64,000 nucleotides of DNA from a virus (IMGVR_UViG_3300019776_000693:1-64000); one strand, 5' to 3'; numbered from the stretch's first letter, positions 3,191 to 27,953 are shown. Notes: a model not told the origin generated them from the sequence alone. Made by a program: numbers and translations.

Positions 3191-3477
3191 ATACTATGAC
3201 AAAATATAAAATTAGCTATATAAAGAAAAATAAATATGTGGTATTAGAGTATATCGAAGATGGAGATGAGCTAGAAATAAATAGAGCTTATACTGGAAAT
3301 ATTAACGAATGTAAAAAGTTTATAAAAGAGAAGAGAAATGGAATTTAAACTAGAACAACATCATATTTTATACATTTTCGCGCACAAAAAATTAAAAATA
3401 GAAGGAAAAAATTACACCTTCAATAAAAAAGCAATAGATAAAATAAAAAGATTATTTAAAAAGTCAAAATATTATAA

Positions 3478-3903
3478 ATGAATATACAACTCGAACAACT
3501 AGAAGCATTTCAAAAAGCTTTTAAAAGCACTTATTCAAAAATTCCATGTACACTTTCAGAGGGAGATTGGAAATTAAGGTATGATTTAAGTAAAGAAGAG
3601 CTCGAAGAATATAAAGATGCATGTGAAGAACAAGATATTGTAGAAATTTTTGATGCTATTTTAGACCGTTTGTTTTTAGCTTTTGGCGACGCTGTTTCTC
3701 ATGGGTTACAAGATTATTTAGTGGCGGGATTTAATGAAGTATTAGCTAGTAATATGTCAAAATTGAATGATGAAGGTGAGCCGTTATTAAATGGAGTTAA
3801 CACAGAATTTGATTCTACTAGACCCTTCGGTAAAGTTATGAAATCAAAGAACTTTTTTAAACCAAGATTAAAAGAAGTATTAGGAAATAATGGAAGAATT
3901 TAA
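3478..3903 (+). CDS. MazG-like / PRA-PH family nucleoside triphosphate pyrophosphohydrolase
   Basis: LSKEELEEY, EIFDAILD, FNEVLASNMSKL, GKVMKSKNFFKP pattern. Confidence 0.8.
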   Translation: MNIQLEQLEAFQKAFKSTYSKIPCTLSEGDWKLRYDLSKEELEEYKDACEEQDIVEIFDAILDRLFLAFGDAVSHGLQDYLVAGFNEVLASNMSKLNDEGEPLLNGVNTEFDSTRPFGKVMKSKNFFKPRLKEVLGNNGRI

Positions 3904-4460: not shown

Positions 4461-5051
4461 ATGTATATTAATTTAGAAATATTAAAATCAAGAAATATAT
4501 CTCTCTTAGAACTATCTTTATTACAATTAGTAAAACAAGCTAGAATAGAAGATGTTTCAGACGTTTTAAGCCAAAATAAAATAGAAGTTGACTCTTTAGT
4601 TGAGAAAGGCTATATCGCGCCTATAAAAGGAAAAAAGGGGCAGAATCTTTATCAGACTTTACGGGCTACAAAAGATGGATTAGAATTATTAGATTTAATA
4701 TCTACTCCTATCATAACAGATGGGGACACCCAAATGTACAAATATCTGTGTGATATGTATATACAAGAAGATTCAACAAGAACTTTAGGCAACAGAAAAG
4801 CAGGTTTAAGATATTGTGCAGAATTTAGACAAATATTAGGATTAACTTTACACGAAATGTACTACTTATGTGAAGTTTTTGTTGCAAACACAACATTTTC
4901 AAAAGTTTTAGAATATATATTTTTTGAAAAGAAAAATAATCCTTATGGAAAATTCAAAGATAATTTAGACTCAAGTAAACTATATCAATTTTGGTTGGAT
5001 AATGAATATGAAATTAGAGAATATTGGCAAAAGAAAATAAAGGAGGAATAA
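4461..5051 (+). CDS. Hypothetical protein, possibly winged-helix replication accessory
   Basis: Directly upstream of helicase (4-nt gap); N-terminal wHTH-like pattern; function inferred only. Confidence 0.4.
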   Translation: MYINLEILKSRNISLLELSLLQLVKQARIEDVSDVLSQNKIEVDSLVEKGYIAPIKGKKGQNLYQTLRATKDGLELLDLISTPIITDGDTQMYKYLCDMYIQEDSTRTLGNRKAGLRYCAEFRQILGLTLHEMYYLCEVFVANTTFSKVLEYIFFEKKNNPYGKFKDNLDSSKLYQFWLDNEYEIREYWQKKIKEE

Positions 5052-12284: not shown

Positions 12285-12292
12285 TATCTTTG
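12285..12292 (+). promoter_or_regulatory. Bacteroidota -7 promoter element for HNH copy 2
   Basis: TATCTTTG directly before the structured leader. Confidence 0.65.
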
Positions 12293-12298
12293 TAAAGT

Positions 12299-12396
12299 AA
12301 ATTAGAAATACGAGCCTAATTTATAATAAAGATATTAGAAAATTTTTAAAAAAGTCTATTCATTGTGTGCTCGTATCACCTTTGTTTAGGCTTTTT
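12299..12396 (+). ncRNA. Predicted structured 5' leader (two hairpins with complementary loops)
   Basis: Stem AAATTAG/CTAATTT with loop containing ATACGAGC; stem AAAAAGTCTA/TAGGCTTTTT with apical GCTCGTAT. Confidence 0.65.
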
Positions 12397-12417
12397 CTGT
12401 TTTTATAAGCCAAAATT

Positions 12418-13161
12418 ATGGGTAAAATAAAAAATAGAGTAGGTGAAAAGTACATCACAAACGAAGGATACGAAATAGAAATTATTGAATATTTTGGAGC
12501 ATTAAATTGCACCATTAAATTTAATGATAAATTAAATACCACACTTTACAATGTCGCATATCATCAAACAACTAAAAGAAATATTGAAAATCCAAATCAT
12601 CCTAAAACATATAACATAGGATATATGGGAATTGGTAAATTTCTTTCGAAAAAGAATAATATTAATACTCAACATTATGTAATATGGTCTGGTGTTTTAA
12701 GAAGATGTTATAATGAAAATGAGAGACATAAATATCCATCTTATAAAGCATCTACTGTTTGTGAGGAATGGCATAATTTTCAGAATTTTGCTGAATGGTT
12801 TGAAGAAAATTATGTAGAAGGGTTTGAATTAGATAAAGATATTTTATATAAAGGTAACAAGATATACTCCTCTGAAACATGTTGCTTTGTACCAAAAGAG
12901 ATAAACTTACTTTTTGTAAATAGTTGTAATAAACTTAGTGATTTACCTCAGGGAGTAATAAAACATAAAAATAAATATAGAGCTAGGTTTGGTAAAGATA
13001 GAAAACATATAGGTTTATTTGATACCTCCGAAGAAGCTTTTCAAGCCTATAAAACTGCAAAAGAAAAATACATAAAAGAAGTGGCAGATAAATGGCGAGA
13101 TTTAATTGATAAAAAAGTTTACCGAGCAATGTATAACTATCAAGTTGAAATAACGGATTAA
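12418..13161 (+). CDS. Free-standing HNH-like homing endonuclease with AP2-like domain (copy 2, full length)
   Basis: Same motifs as 1103..1696 plus ~50 extra N-terminal residues; both end YNYQVEITD. Confidence 0.82.
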   Translation: MGKIKNRVGEKYITNEGYEIEIIEYFGALNCTIKFNDKLNTTLYNVAYHQTTKRNIENPNHPKTYNIGYMGIGKFLSKKNNINTQHYVIWSGVLRRCYNENERHKYPSYKASTVCEEWHNFQNFAEWFEENYVEGFELDKDILYKGNKIYSSETCCFVPKEINLLFVNSCNKLSDLPQGVIKHKNKYRARFGKDRKHIGLFDTSEEAFQAYKTAKEKYIKEVADKWRDLIDKKVYRAMYNYQVEITD

Positions 13162-21637: not shown

Positions 21638-22876
21638 ATGAGTAAAAACAAAAACCGCAGATATCGTCTAAAAGATATAGAAGTTGAAAAATTAGGTTTG
21701 TCTCCGAATATTAGCGGAAGATATAGGCTTTCTAAAGAACAGGAAAAAGAATTACAAATAATTAGAAATGTTGACAGTGATTTAAAAAATGATATAGCAA
21801 CATATTCTATTAATTATAAAAACGATAAAGAGAAATCACAAAGAGGTTTTACAGCTATTGATGATAGTGGACAATTAATGTCAATAGAACGTTATTGTGA
21901 ATATTATGGATTAGATGTATCAAAAATACGAAGTTATAAATTGATTTCTCATACGGGATTACCCTTTTATAACTGTGTTTTCTATGAAGAAGTTATTGAA
22001 TCTGCTGTAACAGAAGAAGAATTAAAATTATTAATTTTAAAAGGTTTTAAAGACATAGAATACACCAAGATATACAAAGATAACAAAAATAAAATTGGAG
22101 TTGTTAAAATCGCAGATTTACATCTAGGAAGTTATGTTGATAATTTAATCCGTACTAAAAATTTTTCTATTGATATTTTAGCAAATAAATTATTAGAAGC
22201 TGTAGAAGATATCAATGAAAGAAACTATTCTGAGGTACATGTACATATTCTAGGAGATTTAATTGAATCTTTTACGGGACTTTCTCATAAGAATACTTGG
22301 AAAGGGTTAGATAAAGCTATGGTTGGGGCAGAAGCAGTAAAATTAGTTGTTCAAATTTTACATGATAATTTTTTATCTAAAATTACTAATCTTGGGGAAG
22401 TTAAAGTTGTGGCAGGGAATCACGATAGGGTGACAAGTGACAATAAAGAAGATGTTCAAGGAGGTGCTGCAAGTTTAGTTTGTTGGGGATTAGAATTGAT
22501 TGGTTATTCTGTTGAATTCAACCCTTTAGTTATTACACATACTATTGGAAAAATATCTCATATTTTAACACATGGTCATCACGCATTATCTAAAAAATCT
22601 ACAAAACAATTATGTTGGGACTATGGTATTCAAGGAAATTATAATTTAATTTGTGAAGGGCATTTACATAGTATTATTCAAAAATTAAATATAAACCAAC
22701 GTGACAATTATCAAACTATAAAAGATGATGCTGTAGACCATAGAAGAATGAATTGTCCATCTTTTTTTACAGGAAATTTTTATAGTGAATCTTTAGGTTA
22801 TACTTCTGAGAGTGGTTTTGTTATTGTAGAAGATAATGGTAAAGGCGTTCCTAATGTATTTTATTATGCGATTTGA
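21638..22876 (+). CDS. Calcineurin-like metallophosphoesterase
   Basis: IADLHLG, GDLIE, GNHDR, THGHH, GHLH motifs. Confidence 0.88.
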   Translation: MSKNKNRRYRLKDIEVEKLGLSPNISGRYRLSKEQEKELQIIRNVDSDLKNDIATYSINYKNDKEKSQRGFTAIDDSGQLMSIERYCEYYGLDVSKIRSYKLISHTGLPFYNCVFYEEVIESAVTEEELKLLILKGFKDIEYTKIYKDNKNKIGVVKIADLHLGSYVDNLIRTKNFSIDILANKLLEAVEDINERNYSEVHVHILGDLIESFTGLSHKNTWKGLDKAMVGAEAVKLVVQILHDNFLSKITNLGEVKVVAGNHDRVTSDNKEDVQGGAASLVCWGLELIGYSVEFNPLVITHTIGKISHILTHGHHALSKKSTKQLCWDYGIQGNYNLICEGHLHSIIQKLNINQRDNYQTIKDDAVDHRRMNCPSFFTGNFYSESLGYTSESGFVIVEDNGKGVPNVFYYAI

Positions 22877-22895
22877 TAACAAACTGTTTAACTAA

Positions 22896-22927
22896 TTTGT
22901 ACAATTAATTTTTATTTTGTATACTTG
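22896..22927 (+). promoter_or_regulatory. Bacteroidota-type promoter for GIY-YIG gene
   Basis: TTTG (22896-99)-N20-TATACTTG (22920-27), one mismatch to TAnnTTTG. Confidence 0.6.
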
Positions 22928-22933
22928 TGCTAA

Positions 22934-23035
22934 TAACTTCTTGATGCGAACACTAAGTTAATTTTAAGATATTATTTTTTACCGAGGAACTTCTTTAAAC
23001 AGCTATTCGCATTAGTTGTTTTTAGAAGTTTTCTC
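22934..23035 (+). ncRNA. Predicted structured 5' leader (two hairpins with complementary loops)
   Basis: Stem TAACTT/AAGTTA with apical ATGCGAA; long stem AACTTCT..AAACAGCTA / TAGTTGTTT..AGAAGTT with apical TTCGCAT. Confidence 0.7.
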
Positions 23036-23050
23036 ATTTTTTAAAACATA

Positions 23051-23962
23051 ATGAAAAAAGAAATTATTTGCGGAATCTACAAAATCACTTCTCCATCAGG
23101 TAAAATTTATATTGGACAAAGTAATAATATAACGAAAAGATGGACTAATTACAAAAGTATAAGTAAAAGCAATGATGGGCAACCTAAATTAAAAAACTCT
23201 TTTGATAAATACGGAGTAAACACTCATATATTTGAAGTGATTGAGGAGTGTTGTTTTGAAAACTTAGATTGCAGAGAACGTTATTGGCAAGATTTTTACA
23301 ATGCAACAAATACAGGGTTAAATTGTGTATTAACATCTTGCGGAGATGTGCCTAAAGAAATAGTATCAAATAAAGGAGAAAATCATTCAAGAGCTAAAGT
23401 TTATATAAATTTAGAAACAGGAGTTTTCTATCATGGTATTAGAGAAGCCTCTGAATCTATTTCTCATATAAGCTACAACTCTCTAAAATTTATGTTGCTT
23501 GGTAGATATCTAAACACTTCATATATAGTCAACGCCGATGATTACGTAAATAATCCTGAAACCTACTTACAAGAAAAAGAATATAAAAAAGTAATAAATG
23601 TAAAAACTAGAGAGTTGTACAAATCTGTGATGGATGTAGCTAAGATTTATGGTATAGAAGTTAATAAACTTAGAGACAGGATAACAGCAAAAAATAATAA
23701 GTCAGGTTTTATGTTTTTAGATGAATACGAAAACCACCCAAATAAAGATTCTATATTAAGTAAACCAAAAAATAAAACTAGTAAGTATGTAGGTATTTAC
23801 TATTGTAAAAAAGATAGGAAATGGTTAGCTAAATATAAAAAACAAGGTAAAAATTATACCATAGGTTATTATCCTACAGAAGAGGATGCTTATGCAGGAT
23901 ACAAAGACTATTTTAATAAGTACCCTGAATTAGAGCCAAAAGGTTTCAAACCATTAATTTAA
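23051..23962 (+). CDS. GIY-YIG homing endonuclease with NUMOD1-like repeats and AP2-like C-terminus
   Basis: GIYKITSPSGKIYIGQS...KRW..Y; ERYWQDFY; SKYVGI...KW.A...IGYYPTEEDA. Confidence 0.9.
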   Translation: MKKEIICGIYKITSPSGKIYIGQSNNITKRWTNYKSISKSNDGQPKLKNSFDKYGVNTHIFEVIEECCFENLDCRERYWQDFYNATNTGLNCVLTSCGDVPKEIVSNKGENHSRAKVYINLETGVFYHGIREASESISHISYNSLKFMLLGRYLNTSYIVNADDYVNNPETYLQEKEYKKVINVKTRELYKSVMDVAKIYGIEVNKLRDRITAKNNKSGFMFLDEYENHPNKDSILSKPKNKTSKYVGIYYCKKDRKWLAKYKKQGKNYTIGYYPTEEDAYAGYKDYFNKYPELEPKGFKPLI

Positions 23963-23968
23963 TCTAAC

Positions 23969-24008
23969 TAAAACCCTCTGATTAACTTCTTAGGGTTTTA
24001 TTTTTTAT
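23969..24008 (+). terminator. Intrinsic terminator after GIY-YIG gene
   Basis: TAAAACCCT / AGGGTTTTA stem followed by T-tract. Confidence 0.65.
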
Positions 24009-24094
24009 TAAATCGTATATCGCAATATCAGTTTACAAAATATACTTACAACGGCGTTTATTACCGTTAACTTAAAAATTCTTGAGCTTTTTTC

Positions 24095-24125
24095 TTGTTT
24101 ATATTATTTATTGTTTGTATATTTG
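24095..24125 (+). promoter_or_regulatory. Bacteroidota sigma-A type promoter
   Basis: TTG (24095-97)-N20-TATATTTG (24118-25). Confidence 0.78.
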
Positions 24126-25947: not shown

Positions 25948-26141
25948 TTATGAAATATGATAGACCAAAATGTGAAAATAAAAACTGCTGTAAAGAAATA
26001 TATAATACAGAGGAAGAGGCTTCAGCAGAAATTAGAAGAATTATAGAAACTCAACGTAAAATTACAGACATTAAGCCTTGCAGAAGTTTTCATTGTGATT
26101 GTGGTTATTGGGCGTTAACTTCAAAAATTAAAATTTATTAA
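25929..26141 (+). CDS. Small Cys-rich protein
   Basis: CENKNCC...SFHCDCGYWALTS. Confidence 0.55.
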   Translation: MFKKNVIMKYDRPKCENKNCCKEIYNTEEEASAEIRRIIETQRKITDIKPCRSFHCDCGYWALTSKIKIY

Positions 26142-26160
26142 CATGAAAATAATAATAGTA

Positions 26161-26187
26161 AACCTTAAGATTATTAGTCTTAAGGTT
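26161..26187. terminator. Bidirectional terminator between the convergent arms
   Basis: Perfect 10-bp stem AACCTTAAGA / TCTTAAGGTT with 7-nt loop. Confidence 0.75.
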
Positions 26188-26192
26188 TACTA

Positions 26193-27953
26193 TTAATTTA
26201 ATTGTGTAATTAGCATTGTTGATATTTGATTAAGTATTGCATTAGATAATAAAACTTCTGAGCCAAACTGTACTTGAAAAGTTCCTGAAGTAGTGCATTT
26301 AACCAAAACTAAAAGTTCTCCTGTGTGTGGTGTATTAATAGCTGAAACACCTGTTGATGTACCAAAACTTCCTGCTAAGGAATTAGAACTACTAACTGCT
26401 GTAATTGGTACATCTAAAACACCTGCGCTTGCTGTAGAAGCGACTGATAATCTCAAATTACCTGTTACATTTGCAGAACCTGTTGGGGTGATTACACCTA
26501 CACTAACACCTGTAGTAGTAGCTGCTGTTTGATAGCTTAAATAAATATATACCTCATATATTTTACCTGCTACCATATTAAATATAAACTCAGGTATATT
26601 TGCTCTAGTTGTATTAGTACTTGCATAACTACTTGGTAACTCTATAATACTTGCTGTGGGTACATTAATATTACCTGTGCCTTCTAAACTTATATTATTT
26701 ATAGTTTTTAAAGGTCTTTTTGTTTGAATAGAAGATGTTGTCTCATCACCTGTGTTAGTACCACTCACTAAATCTAATTGAGGTTTATTACTATGAGTGT
26801 GTTGATTTGCTACAGCAGTAGTAGTATCTAAATTTGGAACATTACCTAAATTTAAATCTGTTTTTGTAAAGCTGTATGTGTTACTATCCTCGTCTGTGTA
26901 AGTAATAGTCCCACCTGCTTTATTAATAAAAGTAGTTGTTTCAGCACTTTTTACAGCATTATTAAAATCAGTAATATCTGAAGCTTCATGTATATGATTT
27001 GAATTTGCTTTTAAATTAAGTGCAGTTTGAGTTGCATTTGATATAGGCTTTAAAGCATCGCTTGTATTATCTAAATTATTTAGGTTTAAAGTGCTTTTAA
27101 TTACAGAAGGATTTAAACTTACTGTATTACCAGCTAATATGAAATTTGAATCAAAAACTCTATTAGTTGAAGCACTTAATTGAACCCATCTACTTAAAGA
27201 AGAAGAATAAACAAATGAAACATTATACAGAAATGCATTTGAGTTTTGAACAAAAACTGCCAAGTTATTAGACGGCGGGGTAAAAGTATAAGTAAAATTA
27301 CCTGATGATGTCCCTGTAACTTCTACTAAGTTATTATTTTTACCTGTAAATAAACCTATTGGAGTAGAAGTGTTTTTAAAATCTACTCCTAATCTATCAC
27401 CTATTTGTAATGATTTTATTTTAACCCAAGTAGAATCTTGTTTTTGAATTAAATCCCCTACTTGAAACGCAGACCAAATTCCTGTGTTACCACCTACATC
27501 TATAATATACCCATCTAAATCGTTACCTGTAATAGGTGTATTACTATTTCCTATAACATTAACTAATTCAACAGGGTCTCTCCAATTCAAACCTAAAGCT
27601 AATCCATCTACATAAGATATATCTGCTTTTAAATTAAACTCTGCTTCTCCAAAAGGTAATTTGTTTTTAATAAATGTTTTTTTAGAAGAATCTGTTTCCG
27701 TATAATCAGGTTGTATTAAACTTATAACATTTGCTTTATAAAGTGTTAGTTCGTCTAATATAGCTTGTGATGTTGGATATGAGTTATCACTACCATCAAT
27801 AAATTCTGTGTAATTCCTAGAAAGTACTTTTGAATTCCTATAATAAATTCTTATATTATCAGTATTAAATATAACCATGTCTATATCTAATACCTCAAAA
27901 GTATTACCATCTCCTATAGTTAGAAACTCACTATTGTAAATTAATTTTATCAT
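26193..27953 (-). CDS. Tail fibre-like / virion appendage protein
   Basis: NLDNTSDALKPISNATQTALNLKA, HIHEASDI, LGNVPN and HTHSNK fibre-shaft motifs; Thr/Ser-rich beta C-terminal domain. Confidence 0.65.
   Translation of the reverse strand: MIKLIYNSEFLTIGDGNTFEVLDIDMVIFNTDNIRIYYRNSKVLSRNYTEFIDGSDNSYPTSQAILDELTLYKANVISLIQPDYTETDSSKKTFIKNKLPFGEAEFNLKADISYVDGLALGLNWRDPVELVNVIGNSNTPITGNDLDGYIIDVGGNTGIWSAFQVGDLIQKQDSTWVKIKSLQIGDRLGVDFKNTSTPIGLFTGKNNNLVEVTGTSSGNFTYTFTPPSNNLAVFVQNSNAFLYNVSFVYSSSLSRWVQLSASTNRVFDSNFILAGNTVSLNPSVIKSTLNLNNLDNTSDALKPISNATQTALNLKANSNHIHEASDITDFNNAVKSAETTTFINKAGGTITYTDEDSNTYSFTKTDLNLGNVPNLDTTTAVANQHTHSNKPQLDLVSGTNTGDETTSSIQTKRPLKTINNISLEGTGNINVPTASIIELPSSYASTNTTRANIPEFIFNMVAGKIYEVYIYLSYQTAATTTGVSVGVITPTGSANVTGNLRLSVASTASAGVLDVPITAVSSSNSLAGSFGTSTGVSAINTPHTGELLVLVKCTTSGTFQVQFGSEVLLSNAILNQISTMLITQLN

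Follow-up and report, generated by a model that had tools for sequence, protein, structure and literature searches.

Sequence comparison among uncultured phages with Bacteroidota-type promoters confirmed the hairpins at positions 22896-23050 of an uncultured phage genome and assigned them to a conserved family of leader RNAs, each of some 120 bases. Members of the family fold into two hairpins whose apical loops are complementary to each other. Comparison of homologues demonstrated the fold, the loop-loop pairing, the strand on which the structure lies and its link with inserted gene cassettes. The family most likely limits the expression of the downstream gene, mostly a selfish gene for a DNA-cutting protein, and is very unlikely to provide a guide RNA.

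The DNA analysed (the window) is the first 64 kb (64,000 nucleotides) of a complete uncultured virus genome of 130,620 bp (G000) with direct terminal repeats and a G+C content of 28%. A megablast search against cultured phages gave no close match to the genome, and its DNA polymerase is at most 36% identical to that of any deposited phage; the promoter type is the sole evidence on the host of this phage. The leader and its surroundings are composed as follows.

21638-22876: calcineurin-like phosphoesterase gene, the upstream neighbour of the leader, with its stop codon at 22876.
22896-22927, plus strand: promoter of the Bacteroidota type, with TTTG (-33) at 22896-22899, a 20-nt spacer and the -7 box TATACTTG at 22920-22927.
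22934-22960, plus strand: hairpin 1, a 6-bp stem TAACTT (22934-22939)/AAGTTA (22955-22960) with a 15-nt loop.
22944-22950, plus strand: loop-1 kissing word ATGCGAA, the exact complement of 23006-23012.
22961-22983, plus strand: A/U-rich, single-stranded linker of 23 nt, holding AAGATATTA at 22966-22974.
22984-23035, plus strand: hairpin 2, a stem of two segments totalling 20 pairs, capped by a 7-nt apical loop and resembling an intrinsic terminator.
23006-23012, plus strand: loop-2 kissing word TTCGCAT, which is the entire apical loop and the exact reverse complement of ATGCGAA.
23029-23042, plus strand: U-rich tail TTTTCTCATTTTTT, overlapping the 3' base of hairpin 2 and ending 9 nt 5' of the ATG.
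23051-23962, plus strand: gene for a 303-aa free-standing GIY-YIG homing endonuclease (Pfam, PHROGs and whole-genome search), with the GIY-YIG domain at residues 7-85 and an AP2-like DNA-binding tail at residues 244-288.
23970-24006, plus strand: terminator-like hairpin AAAACCCT/AGGGTTTT followed by ATTTTTT, located by eye, closing the nuclease cassette.
24094-24125, plus strand: next promoter-like site, located by eye, with the -7 box TATATTTG at 24118-24125.

Every element of the preliminary description was found in place when the sequence was checked. The -7 box TATACTTG departs by one mismatch from the Bacteroidota promoter consensus, -33 TTTG / -7 TAnnTTTG (PMC2483708). A matching promoter box is present 5' of most of the related leaders inspected and is not evident for one of them (L156). 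Hairpin 1 probably lies at the extreme 5' end of the transcript. The two kissing words form an inverted repeat 55 nt apart, a run of U directly follows the second stem as in a terminator (UUUUCUCAUUUUUU at 23029-23042), and the ATG at 23051 stands 15 nt 3' of hairpin 2. No Shine-Dalgarno sequence was found upstream of this ATG, and the spacer is A/U-rich.

The product of the downstream gene was assigned as a GIY-YIG homing endonuclease because its catalytic domain exceeds the threshold (PF01541, 28.8 bits against a Pfam cut-off of 22.6), it carries a DNA-binding module (AP2, 27.9 bits, under its Pfam cut-off of 33.3), it is free-standing and its site is empty in relatives. The promoter-like site at 24094-24125 is placed where transcription could restart into the downstream genes. 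Further along the window, a perfect 18-bp inverted repeat at 26153-26195 lies between converging gene blocks, the plus-strand genes ending at 26141 and the minus-strand genes beginning at 26193; this repeat is probably a bidirectional terminator.

The two hairpins of this leader differ greatly in stability. Hairpin 2 has a folding energy of -22.3 kcal/mol (z = -7.2) and none of 200 shuffled sequences folded as well, whereas its antisense strand reaches only -13.4 kcal/mol, that is 9 kcal/mol weaker. Hairpin 2 of this copy is A/U-rich, and a simple terminator consensus scan gave no call. Hairpin 1 by itself is marginal, as 31 of 200 shuffles fold no worse than its -2.6 kcal/mol, and it is omitted from the minimum-energy fold of the entire leader. 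We also considered a terminator/antiterminator switch in which 22935-22950 would pair with 23006-23030 by means of the sequence AACTTCT found in the 5' arms of both hairpins; this alternative was rejected because the duplicated AACTTCT is absent from two homologues, L010 and L014.

Taken singly, the copy does not stand out from chance. With a generic descriptor (two hairpins, loop complementarity of at least 6 nt and at least 3 G/C), 23 clusters were found in the genome compared to a mean of 20 in dinucleotide shuffles; with a strict descriptor (long hairpin 2, T run and kiss), there was 1 real match compared to 0.33 expected per shuffled genome, and a looser scoring scheme returned hundreds of meaningless matches. 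The 9-mer AAGATATTA occurs 6 times in the window for 4.3 expected, which is its chance frequency, and it is meaningful only through its fixed place in the aligned linkers. As paired-loop matches are as frequent in shuffles, hairpin 1 is marginal and the 9-mer is at chance, one copy is not above the background. The preliminary description had named equal frequency in shuffled DNA as an outcome that would speak against it, and on this single sequence the comparison did so. The structure is established instead by homologues and their covariation.

Thirteen related contigs carry the phosphoesterase gene, and the sequence after its stop codon varies among them. In L010 and L014, a homologous leader lies at the same place, with a different nuclease in each; L012 and L022 carry a leader that differs in sequence type; in L011 the nuclease stands alone, with no leader; and in L013 and L015-L021, neither leader nor nuclease gene is present. 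A fourth leader of the same sequence type as 22896-23050 (L027) was found by a separate DNA pattern scan. Within this type the loop words change together: the window leader and L027 have ATGCGAA/TTCGCAT, L010 has CTACGAA/TTCGTAG and L014 has ATGCAA/TTGCAT. A covariance model encoding the two hairpins only (R1) was built from these four sequences (window leader, L010, L014 and L027). It found, both at full length, the L012 leader and the other leader of the window (12292-12411). A second model (R2), built from six sequences, was run over 38 whole related virus records, and the R1 and R2 searches over these uncultured phage records gave 17 leaders in total. Weak model matches in L008, L013, L158-L161 and L189 proved on inspection to be coding sequence or plain terminators. 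A DNA pattern scan of metagenomes returned 120 matches, none of which was a leader as judged from an nhmmer screen and inspection of L135.

The loop-loop helix was not encoded in the models, and the counts that follow refer to the 15 of 17 members whose loops are in register in the alignment (A4). In all 15, columns 18-24 pair with columns 105-111. For this helix, 99% of cells are paired, 6 of 7 pairs have changed on both sides and up to 4 pair types occur at a position; none of 500 shuffles did as well, and slid registers were only 40-47% paired. The complementarity of the apical loops is therefore kept by compensatory change, as expected of a kissing loop. In the two members with misaligned loops (L156 and L157), perfect complements of 8 nt and 7 nt, respectively, were seen by eye. 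Probabilities from loop shuffles of individual copies ranged from 5e-4 to 1e-2 across five sequence-distinct subtypes. The hairpins themselves also covary: 93% of hairpin 1 is paired with 4 of 6 pairs changed on both sides, and 90% of hairpin 2 is paired with 19 of 20 pairs changed on both sides. A scan of all column pairs for extra conserved helices, such as pairing of the linker with the 5' arm or the tail, gave scattered pairs only. G·U pairs number 47 compared to 6 A·C mismatches; together with the weaker hairpin 2 of the antisense strand, this asymmetry places the structure on the sense-strand RNA and not in duplex DNA.

The other leader of the window had been regarded as unrelated in sequence to the first one.

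12285-12417, plus strand: sister leader, following the DNA polymerase gene and preceding an HNH nuclease gene at 12418-13161.
12308-12314 and 12370-12376, plus strand: loop words ATACGAG and CTCGTAT of the sister leader.

This view does not hold, as the model made from relatives of 22896-23050 matches the sister leader over its full length (R1, E = 0.012-0.04), and R2 gives it 93 bits. The cross-detection by R1, the common CGA/UCG core, the linker word and the U-rich tail show that the two window leaders are distant homologues and not independent inventions. The HNH gene at 12418-13161 corresponds to phrog_953 (HNH endonuclease, PHROGs). The proposal that no further promoter of the window is followed by such a structure was upheld by the model searches, which found no copy in the window besides 12292-12411.

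A third leader of the same genome lies outside the window at 83866-84010 (about 1800-1943 of L002) and carries the words GTAGTGC/GCACTAC. The gene behind it, conserved and 277 aa long, has 39 homologues and does not evidently encode a nuclease. Neither Pfam nor PHROGs gave a match for this gene. The structure predicted for the protein (pLDDT 84) matches winged-helix regulators only, and weakly (best E 0.012), and its matches show no nuclease fold; the protein is predicted to adopt a winged-helix fold. In seven further contigs, a homologue of the 277-aa gene lies behind a leader of the same subtype (W3), each with a different pair of loop words of 7-9 nt. The W3 subtype is marked by a conserved ACATATCGGAGTTTA 5' of hairpin 1 and by a U run inside a longer outer stem. 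Just 5' of the promoter of the third leader, at about 83750-83820, the sequence looks like a tRNA gene and bears a GGTTCGAATCC motif.

Leaders of the family are about 100-125 nt long and present their parts in a constant order: promoter, weak 5' hairpin, linker, long hairpin usually with a U-rich tail, and an ATG within about 25 nt. The stem of hairpin 1 has the consensus U.AAUU/AAUU.A and its loop word the conserved core NNNCGAR. The linker, with the consensus AA..A.AUU, measures 21-28 nt in all 17 members (21-26 nt in the 15 in register), and this fixed length fits a strand spanning the stacked helices of an intramolecular kiss. Hairpin 2 has about 20 pairs and a 6-7-nt loop that is wholly complementary to the loop word; taken as a plain duplex, the kissing helix is worth -5 to -9 kcal/mol. 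The tail, with the consensus aUUUUUA, is U-rich in 15 of 17 members and degenerate in the other two (L184 and L194), and leaders of the L012, L016, L163 and L193 types have a canonical G+C-rich base (CCCG/CGGG-type) with T5-6. The position of the ATG hardly varies, lying between -1 and +9 nt relative to the model end.

One leader was observed with no ORF behind it. At 1501-1634 of L156 (97043-97176 of G013), a perfect 8-nt loop pairing, GTTGGGAC/GTCCCAAC, is followed by G+C-richer sequence close to the contig end; this leader may be the relic of a lost cassette, or the RNA may serve another purpose here.

The genes behind the leaders encode GIY-YIG proteins with AP2, NUMOD1 or NUMOD3, HNH proteins (phrog_953), NUMOD4-HNH-AP2 proteins, endonuclease VII, DUF723 proteins with T5orf172/MUG113 and a weak NucS-like nuclease. 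A module made of a promoter and a structured RNA is accordingly common to unrelated nuclease families, as had been proposed, and the alignment confirms that its loop-loop pairing covaries. The suggested tie to nucleases with AP2-like tails was not borne out, since the leader also lies 5' of endonuclease VII, T5orf172/MUG113, NucS-like and winged-helix genes.

Leader subtypes tend to go with the genomic site and not with the nuclease family. That of 22896-23050 lies 3' of the phosphoesterase gene in three genomes with three different nucleases (L027, with a fourth nuclease, does not enter this site count); it serves a GIY-YIG protein with AP2, another GIY-YIG-like nuclease, endonuclease VII and a SegE-like nuclease. 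At the site 3' of the DNA polymerase gene, all 8 of the 8 genomes with a nuclease cassette have a kissing leader (W1, L184, L185, L194, L188 and L193, plus the divergent L164 and L171 missed by R2); in four genomes without an insertion, there is no leader and the next gene follows directly. The divergent leaders of L171 (about 4545-4667) and L164 (about 3460-3627) belong to GIY-YIG cassettes. The terminator loop of L171 pairs with its 5' partner over 8 positions, including one G·U, but no evident hairpin holds that partner. As both leaders escaped R2 and the L171 partner lacks an evident hairpin, the family extends beyond what the model captures. Leaders seem able to exchange the gene that follows them: L186 (G024) and L163 (G005) carry nearly identical leaders (GTTCGAG/CTCGAAC) with different genes behind them, a zinc-finger-rich 365-aa protein in L186 and an HNH endonuclease (phrog_953) in L163. 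The leader is not obligatory. The nuclease of L011 does without it, as does an HNH gene outside the window at 114931-115767 of G000, which encodes a NUMOD4/HNH_3 homing endonuclease with its own promoter. Within 114538-115767, this nuclease directly follows a 105-aa ORF resembling the N-terminal part of a tyrosine recombinase, as if it had been inserted into or beside a recombinase-like gene.

On balance, we lean towards the leader being a cis-acting attenuator and insulator of a self-contained cassette made of promoter, leader, gene and terminator. Transcription would begin just 3' of the -7 box, and the weak 5' hairpin would form first, its loop exposing a word of 7 nt. Once 21-28 unpaired linker nt had been made, the long hairpin would emerge with a whole apical loop of 6-7 nt complementary to the loop-1 word, so that the two loops could form a kissing helix clamping the 5' hairpin onto the tip of the long one. 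The long hairpin would be followed by the U-rich tract and, within about 25 nt, by the start codon. The U tract would end most transcripts, those begun at the cassette promoter as well as those arriving from the gene upstream. A controlled share would continue into the cassette gene, usually that of a free-standing homing endonuclease, which does harm when overexpressed. The kissing helix would either aid the folding of the A/U-rich terminator hairpin or tune the terminator. In this scheme we infer where transcription starts, that it terminates at the U tract, and in which direction the kissing helix exerts its effect. It is favoured by the terminator-like hairpin, by the insulated cassette and by the parallel with the 5' terminators of T4 mobE and segF described below. 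No other terminator was found between the stop codon at 22876 and the leader promoter, so hairpin 2 is placed to stop both the upstream operon and its own promoter, and the cassette terminator at 23970-24006 with the fresh promoter at about 24094-24125 makes the nuclease unit an insulated cassette.

Several features fit an attenuator less well: hairpin 2 of this copy is A/U-rich and escaped the terminator scan, the U tract is degenerate in two members, some homing endonuclease genes lack the leader (L011 and 114931) and a winged-helix gene has one. The near-fixed distance between hairpin 2 and the start codon also hints at a role in translation. It is indeed conceivable, if rather unlikely, that the leader acts after transcription, as a compact domain at the 5' end that stops 9-25 nt short of the AUG and sets mRNA half-life, ribosome loading or both; the U tract would then be a ribosome landing site rather than a terminator, in a host group without Shine-Dalgarno pairing. 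The position of the ATG within -1 to +9 nt of the model end, the A/U-rich spacer without a Shine-Dalgarno sequence and the fold kept by L184 and L194 despite their degenerate U tracts all agree with this, and T-even phages control homing endonucleases through RNA structure at the translation start (PMC2988022). Such a role leaves the need for loop pairing unexplained, however, and most members have canonical terminator features; moreover, nothing is sequestered, since the start codon and the spacer lie outside the hairpin. A consensus promoter placed right before a terminator is odd for merely low expression and would also make sense if the short RNA itself were needed. This RNA, terminated at about 105 nt, might be a functional small RNA, acting through intermolecular loop pairing or neutralising the downstream protein as a type III antitoxin would, with a private loop word preventing cross-talk between cassettes of one genome; we consider this improbable. 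Its layout of promoter, structured RNA, terminator and harmful gene recalls type III toxin-antitoxin loci, and copies within one genome do bear different words (ATGCGAA, ATACGAG and GTAGTGC in G000; GTACGAA and ATACGAG in G022; ATACGAG and AGTGAAG in G020; GTTCGAG and TTCCGAG in G024). These differences are expected anyway, as the copies belong to different subtypes. The tightly constrained linker suits a kiss within one molecule, a search of 22800-23150 gave no tandem repeats, and specific recognition of a protein by the RNA is unlikely because the same leader subtype precedes unrelated proteins. There is a similarly slim chance that the leader of about 105 nt is an abundant product that pairs with nascent leaders or with itself, as dimers or rings, so that the cassette senses its copy number and adjusts read-through into the nuclease. 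If true, homing endonuclease cassettes would carry their own version of plasmid countertranscript control, one that is self-addressed and encoded on the sense strand.

Readings in which the words address DNA are far less likely than cis attenuation. The 7-nt words form an inverted repeat 55 nt apart and could act in double- or single-stranded DNA, whether as half-sites of an operator bound by the nuclease or by a repressor, as a cruciform or within the homing site; I-TevI, for instance, binds an operator at its own promoter and represses it (PMC2988022). This is very unlikely: the asymmetry of 47 G·U to 6 A·C and the weaker antisense fold are unexpected for a feature of duplex DNA, the words lie exactly in the apical loops of covarying hairpins, and they covary freely across protein families while the same word is kept before different proteins. 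Least probable of all is a guide or cofactor RNA directing the endonuclease to its target. The preliminary description had seen here a candidate for an RNA-endonuclease system, on account of the adjoining nuclease genes and of a variable 7-nt 'code', and nothing emerged in its favour. The code pairs with a partner in the same RNA, the leader also precedes a non-nuclease gene, one subtype serves different nuclease families and tends to track the insertion site rather than the family, the nucleases carry DNA-binding modules of their own (AP2, NUMOD1/3/4), and there is no Rfam match to the guide RNA families of IscB or TnpB.

Control of homing endonucleases by RNA structure is known from T4-like phages. 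In T4, intrinsic terminators at the 5' end of mobE and segF limit homing endonuclease transcripts (Wilson & Edgell 2009, PMC2790892; PMC2988022); genomes without the endonuclease lack them, and a promoter further downstream restores expression of the next gene (PMC2790892, PMC2988022). Common to both is a hairpin terminator with its U tract, placed at the 5' end of a unit encoding a free-standing homing endonuclease. However, the hairpin in T4 is simple, with 9 bp and a loop of 4 nt, and lies within a coding region, and mobE has no promoter of its own; neither mobE nor segF has a second hairpin, loop-loop pairing or an RNA family conserved across endonuclease types. For I-TevI, I-TevII, I-TevIII, segB and the mobE of Aeh1, hairpins sequester the ribosome-binding site and a late promoter is embedded (PMC2988022). 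These share with the present leader a structured RNA just 5' of the ORF, a dedicated promoter and, if the leader attenuates as proposed, an expression that is low or delayed. In contrast, the start codon and spacer here are outside the hairpins, the promoter lies 5' of the whole structure and the hosts do without Shine-Dalgarno sequences. A T-even-type translational hairpin was not found at this locus, where the ATG follows hairpin 2 by 15 nt and the spacer is unpaired in the predicted folds.

Kissing loops are well known from antisense control, as in the complexes formed by RNA I and RNA II of ColE1 and by CopA and CopT of R1. In countertranscript attenuation, as in pT181 and pIP501, the kissing contact decides whether a terminator forms upstream of the regulated gene. 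As in these systems, the loops of the present family are fully complementary over 6-7 nt and the loop word is a private specificity code. Antisense systems, however, involve two molecules from opposite strands, whereas here a single sense transcript carries both loops, 55 nt apart, and the hairpins coexist with the kiss. In type III toxin-antitoxin systems (ToxIN), the antitoxin RNA is made of tandem direct repeats processed by the endoribonuclease toxin, and a terminator sets the ratio of RNA to protein. The gene order of promoter, structured non-coding RNA, terminator and harmful-protein gene is alike. In contrast to ToxIN, the leaders have no repeats and precede DNA endonucleases of many families, with one subtype serving several; at this locus, the tandem repeats of a type III antitoxin RNA are missing and the downstream gene encodes a GIY-YIG DNA endonuclease. 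With the HEARO and omega RNAs of IscB and TnpB, the leaders share the position of a structured RNA beside the nuclease gene of a mobile element. Unlike these RNAs, they have no Rfam match and accompany protein-guided homing endonucleases, and their variable word pairs within the RNA and is not free for a target. A search with Rfam 15 at gathering thresholds gave no match in the whole window, including to Flavo-1, HEARO, the group I intron, small ribozymes and riboswitches, and a permissive search of 22850-23100 gave only five matches, at 15-20 bits against thresholds of 40-90. A full-text literature search found no description of a kissing-loop leader family. The family is apparently undescribed: 5' RNA structures and terminators limiting homing endonuclease expression were already known, and what is new is a conserved loop-loop clamp on a terminator-like hairpin across nuclease types.

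Free-standing homing endonucleases are among the commonest selfish genes of phages, and how the harm to their carrier is restrained is known in detail only for T4-like phages. Here, one structured RNA recurs across many uncultured phages before at least five nuclease families, with an unusually clean and positionally fixed tertiary pairing. The leader offers an experimentally simple system for the effect of a loop-loop clamp on an intrinsic terminator. If the attenuator reading is true, the leader would be a portable module for dosing expression, whose loop word can be changed without altering the fold, and a tunable part for Bacteroidota genetics. It would also bear on how such cassettes insulate themselves from essential neighbours, for example the DNA polymerase gene.
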